From an uncultured virus (IMG/VR IMGVR_UViG_3300042886_000689) (taxonomy: Duplodnaviria > Heunggongvirae > Uroviricota > Caudoviricetes): a stretch of DNA of 64,000 nucleotides. The position numbers and the translations under genes are program-made. Under the pieces are notes generated by a model. That model was not told where the DNA came from, searched no databases, and was given only the letters and a program-made list of their open reading frames with translations. How positions within the stretch are numbered: position 1 is the stretch's first letter; every line of letters begins with the position of its first letter. Shown here piece after piece: positions 18,251 to 64,000 of this stretch. The stretch lies in the IMG/VR virus record IMGVR_UViG_3300042886_000689. The stretch is one strand, 5' to 3'.

Positions 18251-18264
18251 ATATTCTCCTTAAA

Positions 18265-19970: not shown

Positions 19971-20534
19971 TTATTTCTTCCTGTAAAAATACATTACTGT
20001 TAGTGAGCCGACCAAAAGAAACGAGATAAGCTTCATCTGGTAGGCCTGTCTTTCCTTCGTAACTCTTTCGTATTCCAAAATTTGTGCTGTATCGTCTACG
20101 GCACCCATGCCCTTTCTTCGGGCAAGAACATATCGAGTATAAAGGTTTTTAATTCTTTGAACTGGTGATGATTGCATCTGGCCAGCCTTTAGTTTTTCTG
20201 GTTTTTTTAGCTCAGGAATACTATCAATAAAATACTGCCAAGGAATTTCGATACCTGATGGCACTACATTTAAAAAGTCTGCTATTTGGGTATTCCGTTC
20301 TTCTAGGGTATATGGAATATTTGGATTTGATTCTCGGGTAGGATAAAGGAGAGTGACAAATTTTCTAGCAAGCGGATTTGAGAAGTTCTTCATATTCCCA
20401 GAAGCAGTTTTAGCCGCTCTGGCAGGAATCTTTTTAATGATTTTTGCCACATTAGGCCTAAGGCCCGTAACTTCTACAGCAAAGTTCCCTTCTGTGTAGA
20501 TTTCTGGTCTTGGAAAAACAGTCATTTTAGTCAT
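19971..20534 (-). CDS. Tail-anchored membrane protein with SNP motifs
   Basis: FSNP, ESNP, KGMGA; C-terminal TM followed by RKK. Confidence 0.7.
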   Translation of the reverse strand: MTKMTVFPRPEIYTEGNFAVEVTGLRPNVAKIIKKIPARAAKTASGNMKNFSNPLARKFVTLLYPTRESNPNIPYTLEERNTQIADFLNVVPSGIEIPWQYFIDSIPELKKPEKLKAGQMQSSPVQRIKNLYTRYVLARRKGMGAVDDTAQILEYERVTKERQAYQMKLISFLLVGSLTVMYFYRKK

Positions 20535-20543: not shown

Positions 20544-20726
20544 TTAGTCATCGAAAATTGGGTTAAATTCATCGTGGTTCTCATCGTCGTCAATTTCTTT
20601 GATTTTACCCTTACCTGAAATCAGAGTGTAAAGGAGAACACCCGACAAAAGAACACTGACAACTTGAAGATATAATTGATAGCGTTGAATTTTATACTTT
20701 TCAATGTCTAAAACTGTGGGTTCCAC
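20544..20726 (-). CDS. Small single-pass membrane protein
   Basis: One TM helix, acidic tail. Confidence 0.6.
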   Translation of the reverse strand: MEPTVLDIEKYKIQRYQLYLQVVSVLLSGVLLYTLISGKGKIKEIDDDENHDEFNPIFDD

Positions 20727-43268: not shown

Positions 43269-43463
43269 ATGGATTTATTTAATATTCCGCTACCAATAGT
43301 CGAGTTTGCTTTTCACTTCCTTGCAGGAGTCCTTTACTTTGTATGCGGAGGAATTTTCGCTACTTCTGAAGACGATGATACTGTCATTATCTTCATGGGT
43401 TTATTAAGCCTCGCCATTGTTTTCAATATTATGGGCTATATGGTAAATTATGTCCCACGTTAA
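43269..43463 (+). CDS. Small membrane protein
   Basis: Two TM segments. Confidence 0.55.
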   Translation: MDLFNIPLPIVEFAFHFLAGVLYFVCGGIFATSEDDDTVIIFMGLLSLAIVFNIMGYMVNYVPR

Positions 43464-43872
43464 GCAAAAGCATGACTGGGATTGCGTTATTGCTTCAATA
43501 GCTATGATGGCAGGGGTTGAATACAATGACGTTTTAAAAACCTATATTAAGCTTTATCCAAAGCACCAGAAAAGCGGTCTTAACGATGATGAAATCTTTC
43601 ATATTCTATCCCAGTTCGGTATTCGTCCAAAAATAATTGATGCAGTTGTTAAAAACTTGTCAGGAATCATGTTTCTTCCATCTAAAAATGACAAGGGTGG
43701 AAGTCATGCAGTTTATTTTACAGGTGATGAGATATTTGACCCAAATTATAGGATTAAGGGCAAAAAATATTACGCCAAAAAGATTCCTAAGAAATTTCCT
43801 CACGGTACTCAGATGGTTGTAGACAAGAATAACCCAATGAGCAAAAATGTTTTAAGGAAACTTAAACATTAG
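43450..43872 (+). CDS. Peptidase C39-like (papain-fold) protein
   Basis: VKQKHDWDCVIASIAM (Q..C), SHAVYF (H), IFDP (D). Confidence 0.7.
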   Translation: MSHVKQKHDWDCVIASIAMMAGVEYNDVLKTYIKLYPKHQKSGLNDDEIFHILSQFGIRPKIIDAVVKNLSGIMFLPSKNDKGGSHAVYFTGDEIFDPNYRIKGKKYYAKKIPKKFPHGTQMVVDKNNPMSKNVLRKLKH

Positions 43873-47631: not shown

Positions 47632-49410
47632 ATGGCACGTACAAGTACGGAAACAAAATCCAAAAAAGCCCCATCTAGGGCCGTAATTGCAAAAATTGCG
47701 GAAGAAGCAGGGAAAAAAGCAGCTAAAAAAGTCGCTTCTAAAATTGCTCACGATGAAGCCAGTAAAACAGCTACAAGAGTCGCTACACGCGCAGCCCTTG
47801 ACCCTGACTACACTTCAAACACTGACATTGAAGAAGATGACCAAGATTACAATCCTCGTTATGGGCGCGTAAACTACCTCGAAACAGAAGAAGAAGAGGA
47901 AGAAGACGAAGACAATGACTCAGGCTTTACACTGAATCAGTATGGGCAACAATCAGGCAGCGATGACCTTTCAGACAATCCAAGATCAACCGATATTTTT
48001 AGTTACGGTACAGAGCTTTTAAATAAAGGCACTCCAATCCGTTTTCAAATTAAAAAGAATGGCCAGTTCTTAACCACAGTTCGTGAGCCATACTCAGAAG
48101 ATCGCCTTCAAAAAGATCACGGCGAAGGTCACTATGCAGTTATTCTTCGTAACGATGCCAAAGGCACATTCATTAAGCAGCAATCTTTTTCAGTTGCGGC
48201 ACCGACCGTTAAGCACGAGGAAATCGTTAAAGCTAAGACAGATGAGAAGCTAGACCGTATGTTTGAAACATTTGGTCAGATGCAAGAAAGAACACAAGAC
48301 ACCCAAGCACAATTGTTTGACCGCATAATGGAAGAACAAAGACGTAGAGAAGATGAAGAAAAAGAACGCCGAAGAGAGGAGAGAGACAGTATGAGACAAC
48401 AAGAACAACAAAACCAAAACCTACTTGCTACCGTTTTACAGGCTTCACTATCTAATAAAAAAGATGATGGTGGCGGTAACATGGCACTTCTTCAAATGAT
48501 GCAAGCTCAACAACAACAAACAGCTAATCTAATCATGGAATCAAATAAGAACTTCATGACTATGATTCAAGAAATGCGTAGAGACACTTCTACTATGATT
48601 GATAAAATGAGTGAATCTCAAAAAGATCAAGCTCGTGAGTTCAGAAATCAGATTGAAAAAATGGCAGGGTCGAAGAAAGAAGGCTTCGATGCGGTAGAAA
48701 TGTTCAAGATGCTAAATGATACTCGTGAATCAGGTATGCAATTTGGTCTTCAAATCAATGCCCTTGCAAAAGAATTGTCAGATGCAGGAGAAAGCGAAAA
48801 AGAACCAAAGGGTTTAACTGAAACAATTATTGAAAACCTTGGAAAACTTGCCCCATTGATGCTTGCCGCTGGCCAGAATCAAGGTCAAGCACCAGCACAA
48901 CAATACTTTGAGCCTCAACAACAACAATTGGTAAACGCACCAGCGGCTCCATCGTATAAAAAAGCAAGTGCTGCACCAGTTCGTCACGCCCAGCCACAAA
49001 CCGTAGTGGCCCAACCAGTGGCTCAACAAAATGCTCCACAAGCCCAAACAGATGCTCAAAGAGTAGCTAAAAAAGTTGTGGCAAAAGCTTCGGTTGCAAG
49101 AAGTTCGGAAACTGCTACAATAGACGCTAACACTTCTGTAAAAAAGACAGTTGTTGACATTTGTGCATCACTAATCGGTCATGCTCTTATGAACAATGTC
49201 TCTTCAGGAGATTTGGGCGATGCAACTATTAAGGCACTAGCTGAGAAAAACATCTCAACATCAAAAGCTTTAGAATTGTTATCCCTAGATGATATTTATC
49301 ACTTGAGCTTTACGGTTTACACCCTTCCAGATGTACCCGAGCTTCGAGTTTATCTGAAGGATTATCATGATTATCTCAAAGCCAAAGCATCCATTACGCA
49401 ATCTCGGTAA
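47632..49410 (+). CDS. Large acidic/coiled-coil protein, first gene of the structural module
   Basis: Basic AKK N-terminus, poly-E tract, GEGHY beta domain, Gln/Met-rich coiled coils. Confidence 0.8.
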   Translation: MARTSTETKSKKAPSRAVIAKIAEEAGKKAAKKVASKIAHDEASKTATRVATRAALDPDYTSNTDIEEDDQDYNPRYGRVNYLETEEEEEEDEDNDSGFTLNQYGQQSGSDDLSDNPRSTDIFSYGTELLNKGTPIRFQIKKNGQFLTTVREPYSEDRLQKDHGEGHYAVILRNDAKGTFIKQQSFSVAAPTVKHEEIVKAKTDEKLDRMFETFGQMQERTQDTQAQLFDRIMEEQRRREDEEKERRREERDSMRQQEQQNQNLLATVLQASLSNKKDDGGGNMALLQMMQAQQQQTANLIMESNKNFMTMIQEMRRDTSTMIDKMSESQKDQAREFRNQIEKMAGSKKEGFDAVEMFKMLNDTRESGMQFGLQINALAKELSDAGESEKEPKGLTETIIENLGKLAPLMLAAGQNQGQAPAQQYFEPQQQQLVNAPAAPSYKKASAAPVRHAQPQTVVAQPVAQQNAPQAQTDAQRVAKKVVAKASVARSSETATIDANTSVKKTVVDICASLIGHALMNNVSSGDLGDATIKALAEKNISTSKALELLSLDDIYHLSFTVYTLPDVPELRVYLKDYHDYLKAKASITQSR

Positions 49411-49960
49411 ATTACCAGATGCTAAGAATGGCACCGTTGGAGATGGGATTATCGGAAACGTAGACACCATCAAAATTATGACAAAAATGGCGCGAGAGGG
49501 TTCAAAAAACCCTCTCGTTCGTCGCCTTGCAACAAATATTCTTAACCACGACAAAATTCCATCTCATTATTATTTAGAAGAAGCCCGAGCAATCGGCAAA
49601 TTTGTACAGTCGCACGTTCGCTATGTGAAAGATATCGCCGGTGTCGAGACTCTTCACTCACCAGATATGCTCATTAGAATGATGACTGATGTAGGCTATA
49701 CGGCGGCTGATTGCGACGACATGGCTCTTTTGATTGCCTCTATGCTACTTAGCATAGGTATTGTTCCAAAGTTTCGTGCCGTAAGGTACAACTCGCCTAC
49801 AGGCCCCTACAATCATATATATGTAGTTGTTTACGAAAATAATATCACTGACACAATGTCACCAAGTCCTACAAAAAGACTTGCCCTTGATGCAATTGTA
49901 AAAGATCGCCCAATGGGTTTTGAAGTTCCTCACTCAAGTGGCGATGAATTTGATGTTTAA
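49367..49960 (+). CDS. Transglutaminase-like Cys-His-Asp enzyme (candidate maturation protease)
   Basis: VRYVKD..GVETL..P, ADCDD (Cys), NHIYVVV (His), LALDA (Asp). Confidence 0.85.
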   Translation: MIISKPKHPLRNLGKLPDAKNGTVGDGIIGNVDTIKIMTKMAREGSKNPLVRRLATNILNHDKIPSHYYLEEARAIGKFVQSHVRYVKDIAGVETLHSPDMLIRMMTDVGYTAADCDDMALLIASMLLSIGIVPKFRAVRYNSPTGPYNHIYVVVYENNITDTMSPSPTKRLALDAIVKDRPMGFEVPHSSGDEFDV

Positions 49961-50036: not shown

Positions 50037-50423
50037 GTGAAAGTTAAAGAATATTGTAGTGGCGATTTCGGTGGAGTCTCTTATAAACAAGGTGATTTTC
50101 ATACAGTTGGTTTTAGTGGGGCACCAAAGGCACCGCAAAAAGGTATGGGAGCCAACTTTTTTGAAACAGCTTTTAGTAATATTTTTGGCGCAGGAGCTTC
50201 GCAAGTAACTAGCTCGCTTCAAGCAGGAGCAACATCGGTTGTAACAAACGTAGTTGGCTCTAAATTAACTACTGATGCCTCTGCAAAGCAGGGCATCGTT
50301 GATACAGTTAAAGCCTCGGTTGGTGAGCTTTATAAAGAATATAAAATTCCAGTCATTATTATCGGCGGTGGTATTTCAGCATTACTTGTTTACGGCATCT
50401 ATAACGCTGTTAAAAAGAAGTAA
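50037..50423 (+). CDS. Tail-anchored membrane protein with GDF motifs
   Basis: YCSGDFGG, QGDF, KGMGA; C-terminal TM plus KKK; GTG start with AGGAG. Confidence 0.75.
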   Translation: MKVKEYCSGDFGGVSYKQGDFHTVGFSGAPKAPQKGMGANFFETAFSNIFGAGASQVTSSLQAGATSVVTNVVGSKLTTDASAKQGIVDTVKASVGELYKEYKIPVIIIGGGISALLVYGIYNAVKKK

Positions 50424-50426
50424 TCC

Positions 50427-50552
50427 ATGGACGTAACATCGTACTCGAAAGATTATTTTACTCGCCTTGGGCAAAACAAAGATGTTTTTATCTATGGCCT
50501 GATGTTTGGTGCGCTTGCTAGTTATTTTGTATTTAAAATGAGGAAGAAATAA
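50427..50552 (+). CDS. Small tail-anchored membrane protein (41 aa), not in ORF track
   Basis: MDVTSYSKDYFTRLGQNKDVFIYGLMFGALASYFVFKMRKK*; fills the gap exactly. Confidence 0.65.
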   Translation: MDVTSYSKDYFTRLGQNKDVFIYGLMFGALASYFVFKMRKK

Positions 50553-51083
50553 ATGAAACACATGAACGGAATGTCTTATACTACGGGCGACTTTTATACC
50601 AATGGAACTTCTGGCCTTGGTGCTTATAGAAAACCCACTAAGAAATATCAGCAAAAACCAGCCATTAAGAAATATACCATGAATGGCGTTGGTGCCATGG
50701 TTGTTCAAAACGACTTCGGAGGAATGGGCGATATGGGTTTCTCTGTTTTTGGTTACGATGTTGGTGCCGAAGCGACTAAGCTTTACCAACAAACATTAAA
50801 AAACCTTCAATCTCAGGCCACAACGGCTGCTACGAGCGCAGTACAAAACTTTGTGGTTAAACTGACTGGGGCCAACGGTCAAGTTCAAAACGTCAACCTT
50901 ACTCCTTCCCAAGCGGCTGCATATCAACAAACTGGGGTGCTTCCAGTTGGTCTACTTCCTGCTGGCTTCGTCGCGGCACCCCCAACTTTCATGGAACAAT
51001 ATGGTAAATATATCATGATAGCTGGTGGTATCTTGGCAGGAATAATTGCAATTTCTCTTATTGTTAAAATGAAGAAGAAATAA
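50553..51083 (+). CDS. Tail-anchored membrane protein with GDF/DFG/MG motifs
   Basis: TGDF, SGLGA, MNGVGA, NDFGGMGDMG; C-terminal TM plus KMKKK. Confidence 0.8.
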   Translation: MKHMNGMSYTTGDFYTNGTSGLGAYRKPTKKYQQKPAIKKYTMNGVGAMVVQNDFGGMGDMGFSVFGYDVGAEATKLYQQTLKNLQSQATTAATSAVQNFVVKLTGANGQVQNVNLTPSQAAAYQQTGVLPVGLLPAGFVAAPPTFMEQYGKYIMIAGGILAGIIAISLIVKMKKK

Positions 51084-51085
51084 TT

Positions 51086-51286
51086 ATGAATTACTGTATG
51101 GGTGATTTTGGAGCATCTTGCGAATTAACAGAAATTAATCGAAGATTGTTAAAAGACGACTCAATGGGTTCTGCAATCGACTGTGCAAAGAATTTTGTAT
51201 CTAACAATTCTACCCTTATAATAGGCGTTAGTATTTTAGTTCTCGGGTTATGGGCAATGTCAGAAGATAAAAAAGCAAAGAGGTAG
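51086..51286 (+). CDS. Small tail-anchored membrane protein
   Basis: MNYCMGDFG, DSMG; TM plus KKAKR. Confidence 0.75.
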   Translation: MNYCMGDFGASCELTEINRRLLKDDSMGSAIDCAKNFVSNNSTLIIGVSILVLGLWAMSEDKKAKR

Positions 51287-51288
51287 TT

Positions 51289-51672
51289 ATGAGAAAATAT
51301 TGTATGGGTGATTTTGGCGAAAATGGTGGGCCTGAAAAAGAAATTAGCAATAGTTACGATACTCGGGTAAGCCAAATGCAGCCAGCTATGGTTGAATTTC
51401 AAACTGAAGACTCTGTAGAAAGGGAACTTCGATACGAATTATACAATCTCCAAACTGAAGATAATATTTATTTTGAAACAGAAGATTCTTCTGATTCAAT
51501 GGGTGAAAATGTTGTTGCAGCCGAGATGAATACAGTAAACATGGTTAAGCCAACTCTTGAGCAAGCGGCTAAAGTAGCCTCGGACGCACAAGCTCCGAAA
51601 CCGGCCAACAAAGCTTTGGTTTATGGCGGCGTTGCTGCTCTTGCAGCATTGATGTTTTTCGGGCAAGATTAA
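51289..51672 (+). CDS. Tail-anchored membrane protein
   Basis: MRKYCMGDFG, DSMG; C-terminal TM. Confidence 0.75.
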   Translation: MRKYCMGDFGENGGPEKEISNSYDTRVSQMQPAMVEFQTEDSVERELRYELYNLQTEDNIYFETEDSSDSMGENVVAAEMNTVNMVKPTLEQAAKVASDAQAPKPANKALVYGGVAALAALMFFGQD

Positions 51673-51675
51673 CAA

Positions 51676-53988
51676 ATGCTTATTCCATTTGAGTCGAATC
51701 AAAATATTGTAGATGCTTTTAAAATTCCACAGTACATTGTCGATTGGCAGCGTATTCGGATTCTAAAAGAGATTGACGATGTTAGATTTCGTGCCACAAA
51801 AGATGGAAACATTGATCTTTCTCAAGATTCATTAATTTTATTGAAAATAATGAAGCTCTGCCAAATGGCAAATCCTAAATTTAATGCCGATGGAACGGTT
51901 TTATCCGTTGACCCAATATCATATTGCTACGATGTGACGAGTGATCAGATTATTGCAACAATAAATGATTTTGTTAAATACGGTGCGACTTCAATGGATG
52001 CCGGTTCTTCTCAAACAACTTATAACTTGCTAAGAAGTAACCAGTTAAATCTCGCTCGCATGGGGCTTTTTGTTGTTAACTCTGGAGTAGATTCCTACGC
52101 GACTCAGAGGGGTTATTACAGTTCAAGAGTGTCCTCGGAGAACGACCCTTCACTGACAAGTATCCCTCCGGTGTATGCTGTTTTTACTTGCAACTTAGCA
52201 GGAAGGTCATACATTGCATCTAATCCTATGTACATTTACCAGAGCAATTTCGGAGATGGAAAAACTCTTAGCTCGGGGTTTACTTACGCCCCCTTGGACT
52301 TGTTGAAGAAAACGTCTAACTCAAAAGCATATATATTGGCTCAATCTTATATATTCAACAATTATACTGGGCGATATAGTAATGGGCCATTAAAGCCAGT
52401 TGAGCTTGGTGTGCGAATTCTTGAAGCAACAAAAGCCATTGGTTCGCAATTTAGAGATGCGCCTATGGCTGGCTCTAGCTTTTTCATCGACACTTCTTAT
52501 TCTTCTGTGCCGACTATCTACAATGCGTTGATTGTCCTTGCTGATGTTGAAATGATGACTGGGTTTAATTCTGAATATCTTAAAACCATTCCATTTATTT
52601 TTGCGTCAAAGCCTGTAAGTGAAGTAATGGGTGATTACATCGCTGTGACTGAACCAAATTTCTTTTATGGCAAAGATGTTCCAGTTGCAAAGTACGCAAT
52701 GAAAACACCAACCGCCTCGTACACGCAAGATTTCGTAACCGCTGGCCCTACGTTTGCCGAATGGTTTCAGCGAATAACCGTAACTCTAAACAATGGAAAG
52801 TCATTTGTTTTTCCAAAACAGTCAATTTCTCCGTCAATAAACGTGGGATTTATTTCCCCGTTGAGTATGAATGATAATCTTATTACTTATTGGAAAAATT
52901 CATTTACTTTTTTATTCACTGATACTTATACATACCAACCTACGCTTGCTGCCCTTGAAATGAATAAATCGAAATATCCGTTTCCTCTTCAATTTCCAAG
53001 AAAGCTGGTGGAAGGTGATTTCCGTATCCGTAACGGATTATTGTATTCAGACGCATCCAAGTTTTACGCTCTTGAATTTGTAAGATTTTCACAAAATACA
53101 ATTGATGCACTTACCACACTTGCAATTCTTCAAACATCTATTGATGAAGTTCAAAAAGATGTAGCAAGTGGTATCATTATAAGGGAAGGCAATGGCCAAA
53201 CAAGGACTTCATGGTATTGGGAGCTTGGAACAAAGATGCCATTCATTCATCCAGTAAGCTTGAAACCCATTGCGGCAGATCAATACATTGCAGAATTAGT
53301 GGTCGAGTCAGCTATTAGTTGGAACAATGCCCTTGCTGGCATCAACACTCTTACTGCTAATTTAAAAGCTCAAAACGATGCTTCGTACCAGAGAGCATAC
53401 GAAGCATATCTTCGCGGCGAAGCTCAAGCGAAGGGGCCTGAAGCACTTGCAGACTACGAAAGAAAGCTCGCTACAGGATTCTTTTACACTGACAATGGCT
53501 TTAATTATTGGAGGCCATTTACTCCACTAGAAATTTCTCTCATCCAATCATTTAAAGATCAAGCACAATTGTCACTCACGATTTCAAATGAAAATATTCT
53601 AATCCTTGCTAAAAACAGACTTGATCAAGACGCAGTAAACGCCGCCGTGATTCAGGCCAACCAAGACAAGATGGAACTAGCTCGGGTTATGGCCAATGTT
53701 GAACTAAAGCAAATAGCCGATACCGAGCTTTCAAAAATGATTGTTCCGACACTCTCGTATATTATCGCAAGAGCGGAAATCGAGGGGGGTGTCCCTACTT
53801 CTATTCTTGAGAAATGGACTCAAGAGAATCCATATTATTATCTCAGACAAGACACAAGCGATGCAGTTAATACTCTTCTTGGTTATTTAACGAGTGCTGA
53901 GCAAAAAGTGACTACCGCCCTAGTCGCTGATGCTATTGCCGAAATTGAATACACTAAGGCCCTTCAAGAATTATTCACCATAATATAA
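51676..53988 (+). CDS. Large hypothetical virion protein
   Basis: 770-aa ORF inside the structural operon; no motif recognised. Confidence 0.75.
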   Translation: MLIPFESNQNIVDAFKIPQYIVDWQRIRILKEIDDVRFRATKDGNIDLSQDSLILLKIMKLCQMANPKFNADGTVLSVDPISYCYDVTSDQIIATINDFVKYGATSMDAGSSQTTYNLLRSNQLNLARMGLFVVNSGVDSYATQRGYYSSRVSSENDPSLTSIPPVYAVFTCNLAGRSYIASNPMYIYQSNFGDGKTLSSGFTYAPLDLLKKTSNSKAYILAQSYIFNNYTGRYSNGPLKPVELGVRILEATKAIGSQFRDAPMAGSSFFIDTSYSSVPTIYNALIVLADVEMMTGFNSEYLKTIPFIFASKPVSEVMGDYIAVTEPNFFYGKDVPVAKYAMKTPTASYTQDFVTAGPTFAEWFQRITVTLNNGKSFVFPKQSISPSINVGFISPLSMNDNLITYWKNSFTFLFTDTYTYQPTLAALEMNKSKYPFPLQFPRKLVEGDFRIRNGLLYSDASKFYALEFVRFSQNTIDALTTLAILQTSIDEVQKDVASGIIIREGNGQTRTSWYWELGTKMPFIHPVSLKPIAADQYIAELVVESAISWNNALAGINTLTANLKAQNDASYQRAYEAYLRGEAQAKGPEALADYERKLATGFFYTDNGFNYWRPFTPLEISLIQSFKDQAQLSLTISNENILILAKNRLDQDAVNAAVIQANQDKMELARVMANVELKQIADTELSKMIVPTLSYIIARAEIEGGVPTSILEKWTQENPYYYLRQDTSDAVNTLLGYLTSAEQKVTTALVADAIAEIEYTKALQELFTII

Positions 53989-53997
53989 GAGATACCT

Positions 53998-56124
53998 ATG
54001 ACCATTATAAATGTTGGCCGTAGACAAGAAAAATCAGGCCCTACATATCAATTCAAAGATACTTTAGGCATGATGCCTGAAAAAATGGCAAGCAAGCTTT
54101 ATATGCAAGCGTATCACTTTCATCATGATTACAAAGTTATCGAAGACGAAACAATGGGATGGGGGATTAGTTTTAAGCGAGTCATAAGTGATATTGGAAA
54201 AACCATCAATCGTGCATTTAGGGATACGAATAATTTTATTGCAAAAGCAGCAAAGGATATTGCTAAAGTCGCTGAACCAGTAATGGTTGTCGTTAAAGAC
54301 GTTGGCTCATTCACAGAAGATGTTTACGCCGCTGCCAAAAAAACTGCCTTGGCCGCGCTCCCTCCTTCTCTTCGGACATTTGTTGGCACCGCTGTGACAC
54401 AACTAGAAAACAGGGTCACAAACCCAGCCGCAACGGTTGTGGCTATTACTCAGTCGGCTGGTGAAGTTGCTCATAATATTGTAAAAGAAACAGGAAACGC
54501 TACAGAGGTTGTTTATAGGGAAGTTACAAAGCCAGCATTTAAAATAGCTAGAAATGTTGCAAACGAAACTATCTGGCAACCAATTCATAAAGTTGTCGAT
54601 GTTGCTATCCTTCCAATTCTTCCAAAATCACTCAGGGACAAGGTTGAAAAAGTAATGGACATTCCTGATGGAGCATTTAGAGGGAAATTAACCGATAAAG
54701 ATGTTCTTGCAGGATTAAAGGCATACGTTCAAATCGCTACGCTTCCGGCTGCTACGGCAGGGCGATTTTCTAACGATGTTATCAATAGATTAAAAAAAGA
54801 TGCAATCCTTGGCCCTTTCTTGGAAAAAGTTGATATGTATTCTGGGGGCCTTCTTACTTCGGCCCAGAGTCTCGCCGCTACTCCTGATGATATTTACAAT
54901 GATAGAAATATTGACTGGAAAGCAAGGCTCATTGATGCTCTTAAAATATACCTAGCAACTGTCTCCGTTACGGCCCTCATGAGAAGCACAGCCGTTACGG
55001 CTGTTGGAACCGAAACGGGCTTAAATACAACACCGATAGGTAGGGCTGCGCTTGCCGTTGGCGTAGCTTATGGCTCTGCTTATGCTGGTGGAAGCCTGAC
55101 AAATCTTACTGTCAAAATTGGAACCGATGCGGCCAAGGATGCTGCCATAAATGAAGCCAAAGCCGCCACGATAAAAGAAGCTGTTAAAAAAGGCTGGGTT
55201 GACGATGCCTATACAGCACGAATGATTTTGTCGGCTGGTGGGAAGTTTTATACCGCTAGTGGCACAGATCAAACATTGATGCAAACAATGGGTAAAGTTC
55301 ATGATGGTGAATTTCAAAGCCTAGTAAATCGCGAAATTCAACAAAGAACAGGATTGCCAATAACTTATGCACACTTGGTTGATGTTTATAACACCGACTG
55401 GGCCACACTTGCCGAGGACTTGAACAGACAAATGGCCAGAATGGTGCCGACAATGGGCACATCTGATGGCGAATTTTTAACACAAATGGGAAGAAACTTT
55501 GTAGATGAAATGAGAAGAATTCCTGCTAATTTCTCAAATATTGGAAGCAATGTTTTAGATGAATTGCAAAGAACTCCTGAAAACATGGCAAGACTCGCAA
55601 GTATTGTGGCTAAAGAAGCTGATAGAACACCAGAAAATATTGCACGAATCGCCACAAACATTGCTAGAGAGTCAGTAATTGCCTCTCAAAACGCCGCTGA
55701 AGCCGCTGCGCAAGCCGCCAAAGATGTTGCAGCCGAAGCCGCAAGAACACCGGCCAACATTGCAACGGTGTCTGAAAATGTCGCCACAACGGTTATTAAG
55801 GCCGGTGGAGATATTGCATCCGAAGTCGCAAAAACACCTGAGAATATTGTAAACCTAGTTTCCAACGTATCAATCACTCCCCCTAGTGTTTCTCCTCCCA
55901 AGATTGACTTATCAAACCTTGATGACTTGCTTAAAAAGTATGGCCCAGACTTACTTGCATACCTACAGTCAACCCATGGGCCTAACTACGCTCAAATGTC
56001 GTTCACACCGAGCCAGTTAAGCGATATTGAATTAAATTTTAATCAAAAGAAGAAGAGTAAAGCACCACTTCTTGTTGGAATTTTTGCGATACTTGCCGCT
56101 GGATATGTCGCAACTCAGGATTAA
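53998..56124 (+). CDS. Large helical tail-anchored protein with amphipathic repeats (candidate DNA-delivery protein)
   Basis: ETMGWG leader; RTPENIA-type repeats; C-terminal KKKSKAPLLVGIFAILAAGYV. Confidence 0.7.
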   Translation: MTIINVGRRQEKSGPTYQFKDTLGMMPEKMASKLYMQAYHFHHDYKVIEDETMGWGISFKRVISDIGKTINRAFRDTNNFIAKAAKDIAKVAEPVMVVVKDVGSFTEDVYAAAKKTALAALPPSLRTFVGTAVTQLENRVTNPAATVVAITQSAGEVAHNIVKETGNATEVVYREVTKPAFKIARNVANETIWQPIHKVVDVAILPILPKSLRDKVEKVMDIPDGAFRGKLTDKDVLAGLKAYVQIATLPAATAGRFSNDVINRLKKDAILGPFLEKVDMYSGGLLTSAQSLAATPDDIYNDRNIDWKARLIDALKIYLATVSVTALMRSTAVTAVGTETGLNTTPIGRAALAVGVAYGSAYAGGSLTNLTVKIGTDAAKDAAINEAKAATIKEAVKKGWVDDAYTARMILSAGGKFYTASGTDQTLMQTMGKVHDGEFQSLVNREIQQRTGLPITYAHLVDVYNTDWATLAEDLNRQMARMVPTMGTSDGEFLTQMGRNFVDEMRRIPANFSNIGSNVLDELQRTPENMARLASIVAKEADRTPENIARIATNIARESVIASQNAAEAAAQAAKDVAAEAARTPANIATVSENVATTVIKAGGDIASEVAKTPENIVNLVSNVSITPPSVSPPKIDLSNLDDLLKKYGPDLLAYLQSTHGPNYAQMSFTPSQLSDIELNFNQKKKSKAPLLVGIFAILAAGYVATQD

Positions 56125-56172
56125 AGTTGCACAGAGCTAGGAAACTGCTAGAATAATATTCCGTAAGAGGTT

Positions 56173-56802
56173 TTGATGAAATATGTGAAAAATGATTTTG
56201 GTTCAATGGGGACACTTGGCATCTGGCCATTTGACTCTGCTAAAACATTCACAAAAGCTCAAGACCTTGCAGCCGGAAAAGCTTGGATTCAAAAAATTTA
56301 CACCACCCTCAAACCAAATGTTACTTTTGCACAATTTGTAACAACTCTTCGCAAAGGTTCTGCAAACAATCCAACTCCATTGTCAGACGCGGAGTATGAT
56401 GCTTGGCTAACATCTAAAGGTTTCGCAGTAAATCTTCAGCCTGAAACACCGGCCAAAGTTCTAACTTCAATGGCAAGGGCTTTTGCTGCAAATAAAAATA
56501 TGCTTCCAACAAGAGAATCAATTGATTCAGCATTTTTAAATCCAAATGTTATCAAATGGACATACTGGGATGCGGCAAAAATAACAGCTTCTCAAACAGC
56601 AACACAAGCAGCGGCAATAGTTTCCGATGTTGGAACAGTTCTTGAGACTTCTGGTTCAGCACTTGCCTTTATTATCAAATACAGAATACCGATTATTCTT
56701 CTTGCCCTTGGTGGAATTGGATATTTTGCCTACTTAAACAAGGGCGAAATAAAGTCTCGTATAAAAGAAAAAACATATAAGAAACTAGGTCTAGGGAAAT
56801 GA
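56173..56802 (+). CDS. Tail-anchored membrane protein with DFG/MG leader
   Basis: KNDFGSMGTLG; C-terminal TM plus basic tail. Confidence 0.75.
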   Translation: MMKYVKNDFGSMGTLGIWPFDSAKTFTKAQDLAAGKAWIQKIYTTLKPNVTFAQFVTTLRKGSANNPTPLSDAEYDAWLTSKGFAVNLQPETPAKVLTSMARAFAANKNMLPTRESIDSAFLNPNVIKWTYWDAAKITASQTATQAAAIVSDVGTVLETSGSALAFIIKYRIPIILLALGGIGYFAYLNKGEIKSRIKEKTYKKLGLGK

Positions 56803-57197
56803 ACTTCTTTAAATGGGTGAATATTTTCTTTTGTGGCGATCAAAACGACAGAAAAAAAGTTGTTCAGGCCGTACTTGAATCAATTTCAATTTTTAAAAAA
56901 GGCAAACCATCAAAACAGGGCGATGAAGCTGCAAAACTTCTCACTTCTGATAAAGTTGAGTTAATTGGTGTTGTTCCGCATATTGAGTACATTCGTGTAT
57001 CAAGTAGAAGTGCGGAAGATTTAGAAGTTATTTGGAATCACCGCTTTTCAGTACCAACACTTTTGTACAGAATTAAAGACTCACCTTTTTTACTTCTTGC
57101 AAACCCCAATATTGAGTATAATGATTCTAAGCTTCTTGAGATTCCAGAAAATGCTGATCTTAAAGAGTTACAAGATATTTTAGGAATAATAGGATAA
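56799..57197 (+). CDS. Hypothetical protein
   Basis: ATGA-coupled; lies directly upstream of the histone-like gene. Confidence 0.75.
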   Translation: MNFFKWVNIFFCGDQNDRKKVVQAVLESISIFKKGKPSKQGDEAAKLLTSDKVELIGVVPHIEYIRVSSRSAEDLEVIWNHRFSVPTLLYRIKDSPFLLLANPNIEYNDSKLLEIPENADLKELQDILGIIG

Positions 57198-57209
57198 TCG
57201 GAGGAATTT

Positions 57210-58625
57210 ATGGATTTGCAAATTTTGTATAATAATCCAAGTAGAAAGAAAAAATCGTTTAGATCAAAGCTTAATCCATCAAAAAGATTAAAAGCTTCCA
57301 AGAGAAGTAAGCTTCGCTCCTCTGGTAAGTCATTCTTTGGCATGAAGAAGAATCCTACTACTGGCAAAGTATCATTAATAGAAAGAGCGTTAGGTGTGTT
57401 CAAAGCTAAAAAAGAAGAAATTCTTAATAAACCAAAGGAAAAAATCGTGGCTAAGAAAAAAAAGAAGTCAACAAAGAAAGTTGCTAAAAAAGCAACTAAA
57501 AAAGCAACTAAAAAAGCCGCTCCGAAAAAAGCGCGTAAAAAAGTTGCTAAAAAAGCAACAAAGAAAGTTGCTAAAAAAGCAACAAAGAAAGTTGCTAAAA
57601 AAGTTGCCCCTAAAAAGGCTAGAAAAAAAGCAGCTAAAAAAGCAGCTAAAAAAGCAGCTCCGAAAAAAGCGCGAAAAAAAGCGAGTAAAAAAGCTCGTAA
57701 TAAAGCAGCTAAAAAAGCTGGCACTTTACCACCGCCAATTCCTACTGCTTCTAACCCTAAGAAGAAAAAAGCTCGTAAAGTTAGAAGAAAAAAAGGTTCA
57801 AAGAAGTCATCTTCCAAGAAAAAATCTTCTAAAAAGAAGAAAGCAACAAAAAAGAAAGCAACAAAAAAGAAAGCAACAAAAAAAGTTGCCAAAAAGTCTA
57901 CTAAGCCTAGCTATAAAAAAGCTATGAAGAGTAAATCTCGTAAGTCGAAGAAGAATCCATCGTATAAGAAGAAAAATTATTCATTAAAAAACAATCCAAT
58001 CGGAGGAGCTATGTCAAAGGTATCAAAATTTACAAAAAATGTTCTAGCACATGATCTTGGTGAAGCTGGTGGTCTATTAGCTGGTGGAGCGGCAATCCAA
58101 GGGATTCGTCACCTTCAAGCTAAATTTGCCCCACAATTAAGCTCAACTATCGCTCAAATTCCTTTGATCGGTAATTTCCTTGCTTCTAACCTTGATGCAA
58201 TCATTCCTTTGACTGTAGGTGCTATTGCTCACAAATACGTTAAAAATGCTAACGTAAAAATGCTCGCTAAAGGCATCATCGGTGCTTCAGTAGTTGGAAT
58301 CGGTTCTAAAATCTACGCTTCAGCCGCTCAAATGGCCGGTGCTAACATGGCAGGAATCATCGCTGTTCCTTCTATGAACGGAATTATCGCTGTTCCTTCA
58401 ATGAACGGTTTCGGAGCAATGAAAATGACTAACGATTTCGGTTCATCACCGGCTTCGATTTCATCTTCTGACTTCGGTGCATACGGTGTTGGTCTATCTG
58501 GTGAAGGTGGATACTTACAAGATGCTGATTTTGATTCTGCTGGCCCTCGCATGGTAGTTGCTCGTCAACCAGATTCATTAAACGGTTACGAAAATGTTGA
58601 TTACGACGATATGGGTGAATTTTAA
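57210..58625 (+). CDS. Histone H1-like AKK-repeat DNA-binding protein fused to membrane helices and a DFG-motif tail
   Basis: AKK/ATKK/KKVAKK repeats, six NP motifs, hydrophobic helices, MNGIIAVPS repeat, NDFG/SDFG; GGAGG RBS. Confidence 0.85.
   Translation: MDLQILYNNPSRKKKSFRSKLNPSKRLKASKRSKLRSSGKSFFGMKKNPTTGKVSLIERALGVFKAKKEEILNKPKEKIVAKKKKKSTKKVAKKATKKATKKAAPKKARKKVAKKATKKVAKKATKKVAKKVAPKKARKKAAKKAAKKAAPKKARKKASKKARNKAAKKAGTLPPPIPTASNPKKKKARKVRRKKGSKKSSSKKKSSKKKKATKKKATKKKATKKVAKKSTKPSYKKAMKSKSRKSKKNPSYKKKNYSLKNNPIGGAMSKVSKFTKNVLAHDLGEAGGLLAGGAAIQGIRHLQAKFAPQLSSTIAQIPLIGNFLASNLDAIIPLTVGAIAHKYVKNANVKMLAKGIIGASVVGIGSKIYASAAQMAGANMAGIIAVPSMNGIIAVPSMNGFGAMKMTNDFGSSPASISSSDFGAYGVGLSGEGGYLQDADFDSAGPRMVVARQPDSLNGYENVDYDDMGEF
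57460..57900 (+). repeat. Low-complexity Lys/Ala-coding repeats
   Basis: Repeated aagaaagttgctaaaaaagcaac and aaagaaagcaacaaa units. Confidence 0.9.
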
Positions 58626-58755: not shown

Positions 58756-59355
58756 ATGGCATCGACACAGTTAAACGAAGTAGGCGGCGTAGCCCTTCGT
58801 GACCAAATCAAACAACCGTTATATGATAGTATTGACATTTCGTCAGCATCATCAATAACAGAAGAACGTCAGTTTTTCGCTAACACTCAAGGTAAGTCTC
58901 TAGTTCAGTCTAACCTTCGTGGTAACGGTTCTCTTGAGCGTAACAAGTCTTTCCGTATTATGGGAATTCAAGTTGACGCGATTTCTCAAGATGCTGACAA
59001 GCAAGAACTTCTTGCTCTTTTCTCAACTTATTCTTATGTTCAACTTTGGTTGGCTGAGAAGCAATACTGGGAATCACCTCTTCGCTTTGTAACTGGTAAG
59101 ATTCGTTCTACAGTTGCTCTAGCTGGTGCTACTGATGCTGCTTCAGTTTATAACCAATTTGGTGACGCTGGTTGTAACCCAGTATCTTTCCAAGGTGAAC
59201 AAACTTTGGATATTGGCCCTTTAACTAATTTCTACTTGGTTTTCAAAGTAGAAGGTGCTTCTGCTGGTCAGATCACTAAGATGACTCCATCTGCTGATTA
59301 CCCAATCCGCTTTGTTGCATCTCTTAAAGGTATTCTTCGTCGTCCAGTTCAATAA
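58756..59355 (+). CDS. Putative major capsid protein (probable single jelly-roll)
   Basis: 199 aa, alternating beta pattern (QPLYD, QFF, SNLRGNGSL, FRIMGIQV, FVASLKGILRR); AAGGAG RBS, high-expression codon usage, own terminator. Fold inferred. Confidence 0.6.
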   Translation: MASTQLNEVGGVALRDQIKQPLYDSIDISSASSITEERQFFANTQGKSLVQSNLRGNGSLERNKSFRIMGIQVDAISQDADKQELLALFSTYSYVQLWLAEKQYWESPLRFVTGKIRSTVALAGATDAASVYNQFGDAGCNPVSFQGEQTLDIGPLTNFYLVFKVEGASAGQITKMTPSADYPIRFVASLKGILRRPVQ

Positions 59356-59400: not shown

Positions 59401-59456
59401 AAAACTTCTTCACTTTGAATAAAGCCTTGATTGGCTTTGAAAAAAGGGAACCTCGT

Positions 59457-60125
59457 ATGGACGCTAAGTCACAATTAATCCAAGATATTCTTGGAATTCA
59501 AGATGGAATCTCAAAAGTAAGAGCGCGTGAACGTCAAGTTCAGAAGCTCGAAAATTCTAATCCGTTAATGTATTCACAACCTGCTGTGAAAACAAATTCA
59601 TTAGAAGATCATCTCGCTGGAATTCTTCCACCAGAACTAATCCCTTCAAACGTAGGGGATATTAATCAAGTTCAGTGGGGATTCTTTTACGAAGTTGATT
59701 TTGACTTTGGTACAGACCCAACTTTTGATGCCAATACGGCACAAAGAAAAAGCTTTAAAGTTTCTTCGGAAGCGGCTTTTTTAATCACTCGAATTTATCG
59801 CGATCAAGATGACACTGGTGTGGCTGGCTACGAGGCCCCACTTACTCTTACTCTTCGCGACCTTCAATCTAGTCGTCAATTTATGGATAAAGGTATTCCG
59901 CTTCAATCTATCCCTTCTAAAGGATATTTTTACGAGCTACCTGTTCCATTTCTTTTATATCCTGCCGCAAGTGCTGAACTTGAACTTAAATGTTGGCTTC
60001 CGAATGGAATCAACTTAGAGACAGAAGGCTCAAGCAAACAAAGCTTTACTCTTTACGGGGCAAAAGTTCGTGTTCAAAGCCCTGATGCTATTTTCAAGGC
60101 AATGTTTCAAAAGCATAACGGTTAA
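59457..60125 (+). CDS. Putative capsid-like beta-sandwich protein (paralogue)
   Basis: WGFFY...SFKVSSEAAFLIT...LRDLQSSRQFM...PFLLYP...FTLYGAK. Confidence 0.55.
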   Translation: MDAKSQLIQDILGIQDGISKVRARERQVQKLENSNPLMYSQPAVKTNSLEDHLAGILPPELIPSNVGDINQVQWGFFYEVDFDFGTDPTFDANTAQRKSFKVSSEAAFLITRIYRDQDDTGVAGYEAPLTLTLRDLQSSRQFMDKGIPLQSIPSKGYFYELPVPFLLYPAASAELELKCWLPNGINLETEGSSKQSFTLYGAKVRVQSPDAIFKAMFQKHNG

Positions 60126-60134
60126 GGAGTATTT

Positions 60135-60782
60135 ATGAGTAACGGAATTAATTTAAAAGATATGTCTCTTGAGCAACTTGCAAAAGTCAAAAGAGATATG
60201 ATGATCAAGCAAGCCCAACTAAAAGCAGCCGTTGATATTCGCGAAAGCGAAGTAAAGGCACCAGTTGGAGCTTCAAAATATTTTCGCGATCTTGCAAACG
60301 GCGATGCCCTTGCAATCAACAACGTAATCTGGCCATTCTTTTTCACAACATCTTCAGACGTTTTACGCGCTGGTGGTGGACAACAACAAGTTAGCTTTCA
60401 AGTAACTCAGGAAGCCGCATTTGTTTGGACTGAAATGGTTAAAGTTGTTTACGCTGTTGATTTCGATGCCCCTGTTCCAACGATTGAATACATTGACCCA
60501 AATGGTGCCGGAAACTCTGATGCCAACGGATTAAGATTTACTCTTTCTGATGGTGACTCCTCAAGATCATTCATGAATGATTACGTTCCTCTCGATCAAG
60601 TTGGTTCACCTACTCAAGCATTTGTCCCTGATCGCCCAATGTTTTTATTGCCTCTACAATTAATGAATATCAATCTTATCAACAATAACCCATCTCGTGA
60701 TTTTGTTGTTTTCATGATGTTCAAAGGTTATAGACTCCGAATCCAAGGAACGAATGATCTCCAAAACCTTGTAACGCGGTAA
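60135..60782 (+). CDS. Putative capsid-like beta-sandwich protein (paralogue)
   Basis: WPFFF...SFQVTQEAAFVWT...LSDGDSSRSFM...PMFLLP...MMFKGYR; clearly similar to the 59457 ORF. Confidence 0.55.
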   Translation: MSNGINLKDMSLEQLAKVKRDMMIKQAQLKAAVDIRESEVKAPVGASKYFRDLANGDALAINNVIWPFFFTTSSDVLRAGGGQQQVSFQVTQEAAFVWTEMVKVVYAVDFDAPVPTIEYIDPNGAGNSDANGLRFTLSDGDSSRSFMNDYVPLDQVGSPTQAFVPDRPMFLLPLQLMNINLINNNPSRDFVVFMMFKGYRLRIQGTNDLQNLVTR

Positions 60783-60792
60783 GGAGTAATGA

Positions 60793-61380
60793 ATGAGCGA
60801 TTACGGATACAAGAAGAATGACCCTCGAAATCCAGACAGGATTCGTTTTTCTCCACAAGAAATAATTGATGCTTTTCTTCAAGGTGATTTTGGAAAGGTT
60901 TTTAGAGGAGTCGAGAGTAAAATTAACTCTCCCTTTATCAATCTTCCTAAAAATGCTGAGTCAATTGATATAAGACGAGTTTCGGATGCAACCGCCGGAA
61001 CCTTTGAAGAATTATTTTTAAGCTATCAGCCGCCTAAAGGCTTTGAAGCAATCATTACTGGTTATGGTATTTTTTCAGATGCTCAATTTGCAATCTCTAC
61101 TGAATTTATTCCAAAGGTAAATGGTTCGCGAGTTTTTCCCTACCATGGACAACCTCGTGACGTAACAAATCCAAGAATTCTTCCTTATAAAATTTGCTTG
61201 GGCCTTGGGCCTGACTTGACCGATGTTTCATTGGTTGAGTGTTCATTAAGATTAAAAGAAACTGATCTTTTGACTTGGCAATTGACCAACGCAAGCATTG
61301 TTTCTCAGACTATGGGGGTTCGATTTAAAGGATACTTAAGGTCAATTAATGAAGCTCGTGATTATAAAGTAGGGGGATAA
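60793..61380 (+). CDS. Putative capsid-like beta-sandwich protein
   Basis: LSYQPPKGFEAIITGYG...VRFKGYL; beta-rich. Confidence 0.5.
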   Translation: MSDYGYKKNDPRNPDRIRFSPQEIIDAFLQGDFGKVFRGVESKINSPFINLPKNAESIDIRRVSDATAGTFEELFLSYQPPKGFEAIITGYGIFSDAQFAISTEFIPKVNGSRVFPYHGQPRDVTNPRILPYKICLGLGPDLTDVSLVECSLRLKETDLLTWQLTNASIVSQTMGVRFKGYLRSINEARDYKVGG

Positions 61381-62011: not shown

Positions 62012-64000
62012 ATGAGTTTAATTAATGGTAAATTTATCCTCGGAAGTACGGTCACAGGCTCGGCTATTCGTCTAGACAATGATCAATTTCTACGCGCAAG
62101 AAACGCTGCTGATACTGGTGACATTAACATTTTAAAAGTAAATGCAAGCGATGAGATTGAATTTTCTCAAATTCCAATAGTTACTGGCCTTGGTGCTCTT
62201 GCTCTTGATTCTGATGTTGCCGCACTTCAAGGCGATGTTTCTACTCTTCAATCACTTCAAGCTGACTATTTACTCCTCGACGGAACAAGGGCCATGACTG
62301 GTTCCTTGAACATGGGTACTCATACAATTACAGACGTAGTTGATCCGGTTGATCCGCAAGATGCAGCAACTAAATCATGGGTTGAGGCGCAGATTTCTGC
62401 TGGTGATCCTAATAAGGCAAATACTAATCTCGATAACTTAGTTGCAAGTGCTGATGCTACTTTTGGATATAAGCTTTACTCGAACGTCACGTTCGATAAA
62501 GGGGCAGGGGTAGCAGTAAGTATTTTCGGAAAAGAAAATATTGCTGGTCAAGCGTCTGGTAGCATGAGTGTCAACTCAGGAAATATTACTGGTGGTTCCG
62601 CATTAACTTCAGGATTTAATCTTATTTCATCTGGTGCCGTAACTGGTTCTGGGAACGGAACTTCTGGTGCTGTTCAATTAAGTTCCGGTAATACAATTAC
62701 AGGCAACTCGGGCCAAGCTGGTTTGTTTTCAGGTGTTTCTTCTAATGGTGGAAATACTGGCCCTGCCACTGTTCAATCTGGGGCTGTAACTTCTGGCCTG
62801 TCTGGTAATGCCACGATGAGTTCTGGTAATGCTTCAACAACTGGTTCGTCTGGAAGTCTATTTATTAGAAGTGGAACAGTTTTAAATGGAACTTCTGGTA
62901 ACGCTCAAATGTTTTCAGGAAGTGCTACAACAGGTACGTCTGGAAATGTTGCTGCCCAGTCAGGTTCAGCGACTATAGGCAGTACAGGCCCTAGCTTTAT
63001 GGGGTCGGGAAGTATCACGGGTATAAGCTCAACTGGTACTTCGGGAAGCGCAAATCTATATACAGGAAGCTTAGTAGGAATAAATTCAACTGGTGAAACA
63101 GGCCCAATCGAAATAACTGTCGGTGATATTCTTGGTGCCGGTGGAGTCGGTAACTCTGGTTATGTTTTACTCCGCTCAGGTAATACTCTTGCTGGAAATT
63201 CTGGCATAGTAACAATTAACTCTGGTGAATCTAGTCTTGGCAACTCTGGTGACATTAATGTTGCTACAGGTATATCAACCGTTCTAACGGGTCAAGTTAG
63301 AGCGGCTTCTGGTAACGCAACTGGTTCTGGAAATACTGGTGAGGCAATTTTTGAATCAGGCTCATCCGATAGCGGTACTACAGGTGTGGCCGTTTTAAAT
63401 TCTGGTGATACTCAAACAGGATTCACTGGTGAAGTTTATGTTCAAACAGGTGAGGCTTTAGCCTCTGGTGGTTCTTCTGGTGCCATGATTATTCAAACAG
63501 GAAATGCCGTTGATACGATAACGGGTGCTCTTTCAATTTTTACAGGCTCATCTATTGATTCTTCTGGTGAAGTCTTAATCTATTCAGGAAATTCTGTAGA
63601 TGAAATAACTGGCAACGCATCTCTTTCAAGTGGTGACAGCACAAACGCAGCTTCAGGCGCGGTCATTTTAAAAACAGGTTCAGGTGTCGGGTCAGGGGTT
63701 GTTCAAATTTTTTCAGGTGAGTCTACGTCAAGTGGTGCTGCATCTGGTGATATTTTTATGTCAACTGGAACTGTGCCTGTTGATACAAACACTGGTTCAA
63801 TGTTCTTTGCTACTCTTGCCGTTACAGGAACAGGAGAATCAGGGAAGCATGAATTCACTACTGGTTCTTCGGAAACAGGCGCGACAGGATTGTTTAACGT
63901 AACTACAGGGTACTCGGAATCTGGTGCCACTGGAACAATTGAACTTTATACAGGTGGAACAAACACTGGCAGTACGGGTGGAATATATCTCCTCACTGGA
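62012..64000 (+). CDS. Ser/Gly-repeat fibre/spike protein (3'-truncated by the window end; not in ORF track)
   Basis: AAGGAAG RBS; MSLINGKFILGSTVTGSAIRLDNDQFLRARNAADTGDINILKVNASDEIEF; LLLDGTRAMTGSLNMG...DAATKSWV; then about 15-aa [ST]G-x5-[ST]G repeats, open to 64000. Confidence 0.85.
   Translation, partial: MSLINGKFILGSTVTGSAIRLDNDQFLRARNAADTGDINILKVNASDEIEFSQIPIVTGLGALALDSDVAALQGDVSTLQSLQADYLLLDGTRAMTGSLNMGTHTITDVVDPVDPQDAATKSWVEAQISAGDPNKANTNLDNLVASADATFGYKLYSNVTFDKGAGVAVSIFGKENIAGQASGSMSVNSGNITGGSALTSGFNLISSGAVTGSGNGTSGAVQLSSGNTITGNSGQAGLFSGVSSNGGNTGPATVQSGAVTSGLSGNATMSSGNASTTGSSGSLFIRSGTVLNGTSGNAQMFSGSATTGTSGNVAAQSGSATIGSTGPSFMGSGSITGISSTGTSGSANLYTGSLVGINSTGETGPIEITVGDILGAGGVGNSGYVLLRSGNTLAGNSGIVTINSGESSLGNSGDINVATGISTVLTGQVRAASGNATGSGNTGEAIFESGSSDSGTTGVAVLNSGDTQTGFTGEVYVQTGEALASGGSSGAMIIQTGNAVDTITGALSIFTGSSIDSSGEVLIYSGNSVDEITGNASLSSGDSTNAASGAVILKTGSGVGSGVVQIFSGESTSSGAASGDIFMSTGTVPVDTNTGSMFFATLAVTGTGESGKHEFTTGSSETGATGLFNVTTGYSESGATGTIELYTGGTNTGSTGGIYLLTG

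Follow-up and report, generated by a model that had tools for sequence, protein, structure and literature searches.

A shared glycine/aromatic tag on tail-anchored and core-like proteins of a tailless phage, with a possible dock-and-trim role in loading its particle

How do membrane-containing phages choose their membrane cargo? A locus that bears on this question lies in a stretch of 64,000 nt from an uncultured virus (IMGVR_UViG_3300042886_000689, classed as Caudoviricetes in the IMG/VR record), called the window below, where a run of late genes at positions 50037-58625 encodes proteins carrying a short common peptide tag. Judged from the protein sequences, the tag is one family of elements in two parts, (M-x-G…)-D-F-G and [ML]-G. 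The tagged block lies between a transglutaminase-like gene, 49367, and a capsid gene, 58756 (genes are named here by position). The feature is real; the mechanism that we attach to it is a proposal.

A sequence-only reading of the window had described [GNS]DFG and MG/LG leaders on a series of tail-anchored membrane proteins, and all the motifs that it quoted were found in the open reading frames (ORFs) to which it had assigned them. The tag is both enriched and conserved. [GNS]DFG stood far above shuffled sequences: the nine ORFs of the span, 2787 aa in all, contain it seven times, where 2000 within-protein shuffles gave 0.07, and the remaining 90 ORFs of the window contain it twice. Protein-level conservation was seen in orthologues. 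In the first 75 residues of the seven late transmembrane (TM) proteins, with hydrophobic stretches masked, DFG was found 5 times against 0.14 expected, [GNS]DF 7 times against 0.31 and [ML]G 13 times against 3.4. Over the whole span proteins [ML]G[AGDSW] was not enriched (9 against 5.8, p 0.12), so that the MG/LG signal is confined to the leaders. Hydrophobic-Gly sites were concentrated in the first 60 residues (31 against 18 expected). Unbiased word counts in the 14 tail-anchored proteins of the window returned Y..GD, GDF and DFG as the top words, and the codons of the tags differ at third positions. The genes and elements concerned are the following; Pfam and PHROGs gave no family name for any tagged protein.

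49367..49960, + strand: transglutaminase-fold Cys enzyme, candidate maturation protease, heading the block; C116 at 49712, H150 at 49814, D175 at 49889
50037..50423, + strand: 128-aa tail-anchored protein with a GTG start; leader YCSGDFGG, QGDF, KGMG
50427..50552, + strand: 41-aa TM protein with a basic tail; no DFG, has KDYF and RLG; 50% identity to ORFs of loci L005 and L007 (E 3e-8)
50553..51083, + strand: 176-aa tail-anchored protein; tag array within the first 62 residues
50676..50720, + strand: 15-residue unit MNG-x-GAM-xxx-NDFG inside 50553; 10/15 identical to 58398-58442
51086..51286, + strand: 66-aa tail-anchored protein; leader YCMGDFG, DSMG further on
51289..51672, + strand: 127-aa tail-anchored acidic protein; leader YCMGDFG, DSMG further on
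51676..53988, + strand: 770-aa untagged protein, no leader, no C-terminal TM; orthologue in L005, none in L007
53998..56124, + strand: 708-aa tail-anchored protein; DTLG (residues 21-24), TMG (52-54)
56176..56802, + strand: 208-aa protein with a near-C-terminal TM; leader NDFGSMGTLG
56799..57197, + strand: 132-aa conserved soluble protein, untagged; orthologues in L005, L007 and L026
57210..58625, + strand: 471-aa Lys-rich core-like protein; basic N-terminal part with Asn-Pro (NP) motifs, hydrophobic helices, acidic tagged tail (~58335-58625)
58398..58442, + strand: second copy of the 15-residue unit, in the 57210 tail; match to 50676-50720
58756..59355, + strand: probable single-jelly-roll major capsid protein, proposed binding partner; all-beta model
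59415..61380, + strand: three more conserved genes, probably jelly-roll capsid proteins on a sequence basis; 59415 against 60135, E 4e-7
19971..20534, - strand: tail-anchored protein outside the tagged block; KGMGA between an NP-bearing domain and a TM module

Some details of the earlier description had to be amended. The gene placed at 56173 has its motif, and ATG 56176 is the likelier start. Six of the seven proteins named as mostly ending in a TM helix do so (50037, 50553, 51086, 51289, 53998, 56176), the exception being 57210, whose tags lie in its acidic C-tail; the basic tail said to be frequent is present in 50037, 50553, 51086 and 56176 and absent from 51289 and 53998. The series is interrupted by 51676 and 56799, which have neither leader nor C-terminal TM, and the 41-aa TM ORF at 50427-50552 had been overlooked. 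Nor are all the proteins otherwise unrelated, since the leaders of 50037 and 50553 align (E 2e-4, 16-protein database), and that of 50037 aligns also with the leaders of L005/L007 proteins.

Is the tag maintained as a peptide? The clearest case is the 15-residue unit that the membrane protein 50553 shares with the tail of the core-like 57210, with an alignment score of 54 (shuffled mean 22, maximum 45 in 3000). Silent positions are identical in only 2/8 while 10/15 residues are, and this indicates selection at the protein level; a recent DNA duplication or a nucleic-acid motif as the source of the unit was ruled out by the diverged silent sites. The codons of CMGDF are identical in 51086 and 51289, so a duplication between these two genes is possible.

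The comparison was extended to 25 other loci or genomes, reached via the capsid protein or the enzyme. The M-[NA]-G…DF unit was seen again in L003, L004, L005, L007 and L025. In the tails of the 57210 orthologues M-x-G, DFG and the second DF are invariant in all seven aligned, some rows being gapped inside DFG (e.g. DFQG), and in the 57210 tail itself [DE]F was counted 4 times against 0.64 and [LM]xG 5 times against 1.5. Ten of the 12 aligned orthologues of 56176 have a leader; [ML]G is kept in 10/10 of these, D/N-F lies upstream in 6/10 and DFG occurs in 3/10. Both DTLG and [TS]MG of 53998 are kept in the single full orthologue aligned (L005). The L005 and L007 proteins at the gene position of 51289 begin YMGQFG, and further anchored proteins of these loci begin MGHFG, MGQFG, SDFG or GDFG. 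The 57210 tail also contains a tandem 7-residue repeat, GIIAVPS(M), at 58370-58420, with two copies here and three in L005/L006.

Which protein could read the tag? The 197-aa product of 49367 gave a confident model (pLDDT 89) and has the fold and the Cys-His-Asp triad of the transglutaminase-like superfamily. The triad is intact: C116, H150 and D175 are invariant in 42/42 aligned homologues, and DCDD-like and HIY-like motifs are present in 117/118. The best Foldseek matches were LapG, BDI_1141 and PeiP, and VIA-align gave Z 13.4 for BDI_1141, 12.1 for factor XIII and 8.8 for LapG; by sequence, Pfam alone left the enzyme below cut-off, and a PDB sequence search with its profile drew only weak matches. 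The homologue family is mostly viral. Its sole match among 50,697 phage records was gp34 of the cultured phage SSIP-1 (34%), annotated as a structural protein.

Some homologues are themselves anchored. A stretch with hydrophobic-(x)-Gly or DFG stands at the domain border, right after the catalytic domain, in eight of the nine C-terminally anchored homologues printed, a count for which no null was computed; the stretches are LNG + GMG (gp34), GLNG + GDF (L016), GDFG (L049) and PE[LM](x)G (five loci, one clade), and the anchored homologue of L017 has none. In L015 the stretch LQGLG separates the enzyme from an N-terminal TM. A complex prediction for 49367 (residues 10-197) with the 56176 leader (1-40) scored 0.02 against a mark of 0.32, which is not evidence either way. 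In L027 (258-4028), a contig of a metagenome-assembled genome, the C-half of the enzyme appears to continue in frame into an unrelated protein of 1,100 aa, likely a chimeric assembly.

The sequence-only reading had noted that MNGVG, MNGFG and LSGEG fit the adenovirus protease consensus, which it gave correctly as (M/I/L)xGx|G, the other form being (M/I/L)xGG|x; Gly-containing sites of this type are cut in adenovirus maturation, according to the available part of PMC4246237. This assignment did not hold. [MIL]xGxG was weakly enriched over the span (6 against 2.1, two of these inside TM helices), in the leaders it occurred twice against 0.46 (p 0.075) and [MIL]xGG was absent, and the Gly after MNGx/LSGx is not maintained in orthologous tails (MGGFG, MNGFA, MSGII, MNGQL; LNGGY, LEGSY). 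The candidate enzyme has a transglutaminase fold, not that of adenain, and no adenain/Ulp1-fold protease was matched by Pfam in the 51 window proteins scanned, although the virus may extend about 8 kb past the window. Membership in the adenovirus substrate system was thus rejected for its unconserved final Gly and weak enrichment, and we keep it as an analogy. The wider suggestion of a shared assembly tag and/or propeptide fared better, in that proteins which probably belong to the virion membrane share a tag selected at the protein level, and the first gene of the operon encodes an enzyme whose triad is intact. A second peptidase candidate, a 140-aa C39-like product among small early genes (43450-43872, + strand; QxxxxDC…H…D; Pfam E 0.033), was set aside as tag reader of a C39 double-glycine leader system: with this query no homologue was found in any examined locus, nor in any of five records, and no conservation alongside tagged genes was seen.

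On the other side of the block, 58756 was modelled as one all-beta sandwich (pLDDT 68) and is probably a single-jelly-roll major capsid protein. VIA-align placed it at Z 6.0-7.5 to SPMV, SPV1, HHIV-2 and HCIV-1, below the tool's caution value of Z 8, with 6.0-6.7 for the vertical single jelly-roll chains of Singelaviria type (SPV1, HHIV-2, HCIV-1), and Foldseek returned no match at E<=0.001. The sequence search gave 86 representatives at E<=0.001 (50% clustering), and the Atlas clusters of the protein are ~88% viral. No significant match was obtained between its profile and SSIP-1 gp45/gp46 or P23-77 VP16 (gp46 E 0.015, probability 3%), nor between the 57210 core tail and SSIP-1 gp44. Its C-terminus reads RRPVQ, and 78/82 homologues end in Gln or Gln-Gly. 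Among the neighbouring capsid-like genes, 60793 carries QGDFG at residues 30-34, the GDFG being partly kept in homologues (SEFG, GDFE, absent in L026).

Taking these elements together, we tentatively propose, at a little short of even confidence, that the shared glycine/aromatic tag docks membrane and core-like proteins under the capsid and is then trimmed at [ML]G, in the manner of vaccinia A17/D13/I7 and adenovirus pVI/pVII. We infer the binding partner, the topology, the cleavage and its exact bond as follows. The tail-anchored proteins would enter the host membrane so that their N-termini face the side on which the jelly-roll shell assembles, a topology modelled on PRD1-type assembly. The aromatic/acidic half of the tag (Y-x-x-G-D-F, M-N-G…D-F-G) would bind in a pocket on the inside of the capsomer, where tag arrays would add avidity and one site could gather both the membrane proteins and the 57210 tail. 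At maturation 49367 would cut after hydrophobic-Gly ([ML]G) and free the cargo. Binding is favoured because the shared unit is long, the tags form arrays, D-F is kept without G and the Thermus phages discussed below are tagged; cutting is favoured because [ML]G is invariant, leaderless orthologues exist, the enzyme heads the block and tags stand at the enzyme's own domain border.

A number of results weigh against this proposal. Per-locus enrichment was clear in only three of the 25 loci (L005, L007, L013), and the pattern had been written after seeing them; many loci have one to three anchored proteins, and GC-rich gene calls are rough (in SSIP-1 1/9 by automatic calling against 3/10 annotated). 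When 50 dereplicated anchored proteins of distant loci were pooled, G[LMF]G reached 17 against 4.3, falling to 7 against 3.0 (p 0.03) without L013, and the 165 non-anchored proteins of distant loci were also enriched (18 against 10.7). In SSIP-1 the same motif is only suggestive, with 3 against 0.6 in leaders and 4 against 2.0 in whole proteins (p 0.15). The most distant 56176 orthologues (L025, L026; 18-22% identity) lack a leader and start near the leader's end. As a general rule the last site is not followed by an amphipathic helix of the pVI kind (moment 0.260 against 0.256, p 0.43; 38/82 anchored proteins with a site), the first five residues being slightly more hydrophobic (p 0.03). Factor XIII, TG3 and TG2 rank 2-5 in the fold search (Z 10.4-12.1), that is, true transglutaminases match as well as proteases, so that the fold does not settle the activity. 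The last group of adverse results comes from two Thermus phages in which no transglutaminase match was found: G[LMF]G occurs 5 times against 0.9 in 11 membrane proteins of P23-77, and DFG 3 times against 0.1 in eight of IN93, two of them in one duplicated stretch.

For these comparisons membrane proteins were hand-picked by annotation and hydropathy, with TM segments masked. DFG, [GNS]DF and G[LMF]G were all at zero in 32 control proteins, from PRD1 (9), PM2 (7), Bam35 (9) and SH1/HCIV-1 (7). The Thermus pair represents a single lineage with two protein families; P23-77 ORF18 retains the DF of IN93 ORF15. In these phages (L054:7486-7899; L034:9407-9757 and 10912-11190) SSDFG occurs twice in IN93 ORF15, QGLG…SGDF in P23-77 ORF18 and FGLG-x-LG arrays in VP22 and IN93 ORF19; no comment on these motifs was found in the available portions of the published literature. 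With tags in the Thermus phages and none in the controls, the tag's distribution matches that of bacterial single-jelly-roll viruses no less closely than that of the enzyme, and the presence of tags where no enzyme was found tilts toward docking as the older role.

The main rival, unlikely in our estimate, is that the tags bind capsid or scaffold uncut and that 49367 acts elsewhere, e.g. on the NP-motif proteins. Besides the Thermus phages, it is supported by the very short leaders of 51086 and 51289 (5-9 residues), by the tandem arrays and by the retention of D-F without a following G; it sits badly with the 56176 orthologues, where [ML]G is the part that never varies while 4/10 have lost DF, and with the anchored enzyme forms that bear tags at their own domain border. 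The converse, that each hydrophobic-Gly is the P2-P1 of a protease site, that TM helices bring the proteins to the virion and that DFG is a site variant, seems to us improbable. D-F-G, S-M-G, T-L-G and G-L-G do fit a single x-hydrophobic-Gly pattern, which is typical of papain-clan S2 pockets, and the clustering of sites near the N-terminus and the leaderless orthologues agree with it, but the 15-residue unit and Y-x-x-G-D-F exceed the length needed for a cut site, D-F is conserved also where no G follows, and tags occur in the Thermus phages with no enzyme found.

Two further explanations appear still more remote. The tags might be generic membrane-interface or flexible Gly-hydrophobic linkers, or be recognised by a host factor, with no virus-encoded reader; in 12 unmasked tail-anchored control proteins [LMF]G indeed reached 25 against 11.9, and many distant loci have no clear tag. 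That control signal, however, is gone after TM masking in PRD1, PM2, Bam35 and SH1/HCIV-1, and a unit identical at 10/15 residues in two protein types is too specific, so that we consider this account quite improbable. The least credible to us is transamidation, in which 49367 would link the tagged proteins covalently, e.g. to the terminal Gln of the capsid protein: the high rank of true transglutaminases and the Gln or Gln-Gly ends of the capsid homologues speak for it, while 49367 is a lone core like the bacterial proteases LapG/Pei and the tags have no conserved Gln or Lys.

The window is most of one phage genome, and the virus is a tailless phage, probably of single-jelly-roll kind. It encodes a protein-primed B-family polymerase (PF03175, E 4e-56), together with a PIF1 helicase, a GH108 lysozyme and fibre genes in the Pfam scan, and Pfam/PHROGs returned no terminase, portal or HK97 capsid family in the 51 window proteins scanned. 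An internal lipid membrane may be inferred from the many tail-anchored late proteins and by analogy with SSIP-1. The same enzyme sequence, without a difference, is carried by contigs as long as 71,774 bases, so that the virus may reach ~8 kb past the window; no close relatives were found in IMG/VR, and a later search yielded one extra contig, L049. Walker A motifs occurred only in the PIF1 helicase and at one unlikely site in 14469, part of the genome being outside the window, and a packaging ATPase of FtsK/HerA type may sit there or be absent.

Other genes merit mention. Immediately before the enzyme, 47632-49410 (+ strand) encodes a 592-aa acidic, Gln-rich coiled-coil protein, a possible scaffold, with homologues at the same place in L007 and L025 and similar-looking genes in L026 and SSIP-1 (gp33). 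A long Gly/Ser/Thr-rich open frame at 62012-64000 (+ strand) exits the end of the window and is probably a fibre; L006 has a 1632-aa protein at the same gene position. The GH108 lysozyme at 20726-21364 (- strand) has a C-terminal TM and is probably virion-borne, its homologue SSIP-1 gp31 being without an anchor. Basic-x-Asn-Pro motifs (KSNP, KKNP, RRNP; up to 8 per protein) form a second code besides the tags, in a run of largely soluble proteins at 11431-19542 (- strand) and also at 57210-58000 (+ strand), with ENP/QNP in SSIP-1 gp41, gp43 and gp44.

Taken further, and at slightly lower confidence than the proposal itself, a widespread group of large tailless single-jelly-roll phages may use one peptide code to bring many unrelated membrane proteins and the core protein beneath the capsid, with a transglutaminase-fold protease trimming them and the docking half being older and common to P23-77/IN93. 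If this is true, prokaryotic jelly-roll viruses would have a maturation-protease system invented independently of adenain and I7, and a portable tag could load chosen proteins into lipid-lined particles. Three cultured phages could separate the hypotheses, SSIP-1 having tag and enzyme, P23-77 and IN93 the tag with no enzyme detected. What is new here is the unit shared by membrane and core proteins, the orthologue comparison, the failed test of the adenovirus consensus and this cultured test set. A literature search whose coverage did not extend to the original papers on SSIP-1 and P23-77, a possible source of processed N-termini, found no description of the tag or of the enzyme family. The terms 'protease', 'transglut' and 'SSIP' do not occur in PMC5894146, nor 'protease' and 'motif' in PMC12429598, nor 'protease' and 'proteolytic' in PMC6356626. 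In Tectiliviricetes proteases have not been identified (PMC8328091), and in HCIV-1 the proteins beneath the capsomers were traced only as poly-Ala, as stated in the available section of PMC6414509. Among known systems, close ones by fold are the transglutaminase-like proteases LapG (BTLCP), PeiW and PeiP, which share fold and Cys-His-Asp triad with 49367 at 14-19% identity. LapG and the Pei proteases act on LapA or pseudomurein. In phage T4 the capsid targeting sequence is a short N-terminal address common to unrelated cargo and removed by the virion protease, but T4 is an HK97-fold tailed phage with soluble cargo and a serine protease.

A cultured phage close in content is SSIP-1, a membrane-containing T=49 phage with possibly a single jelly roll (PMC6260650, in the part available). 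It has gp34, NP motifs, a GH108-like lysozyme and numerous small proteins that end in a TM helix and carry GMG/GLG close to the N-terminus, but no DFG, and it encodes an integrase and an AAA ATPase with no protein-primed B-family polymerase annotated. P23-77 and IN93 (Matshushitaviridae) have single-jelly-roll capsids and membrane proteins with SDFG/SGDF and FGLG arrays, one of which, P23-77 VP22, is associated with the virion membrane (PMC12429598); they differ in their 17-20 kb genomes, in having no transglutaminase match and in capsid sequences with no detectable similarity. Adenovirus offers a parallel to the one unit on membrane protein 50553 and core-like 57210, in that a single hexon pocket is contested by the membrane-active pVI and the basic core protein pVII (bioRxiv 857581, from the available text); unlike there, the adenovirus consensus is unconserved in the window, the enzyme fold differs, and adenovirus has no internal membrane. 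There is also a likeness to vaccinia A17/D13/I7. The N-tail of A17 is bound in the base cavity of D13 through Tyr3, 6 and 7 (PMC13672803), and I7-dependent processing of A17 goes with scaffold removal (PMC4213562), both as given in the accessible parts of these papers. Like A17, the tagged membrane proteins of the window have their aromatic N-terminal tag on the soluble side; the vaccinia tail, in these same sources, binds a jelly-roll capsomer cavity before a viral Cys protease removes it. In vaccinia a single membrane protein is involved and the jelly roll is double; in the window the tag is on six or more proteins and on a core-like tail, the jelly roll is probably single, the enzyme has a transglutaminase fold and the host is a bacterium.

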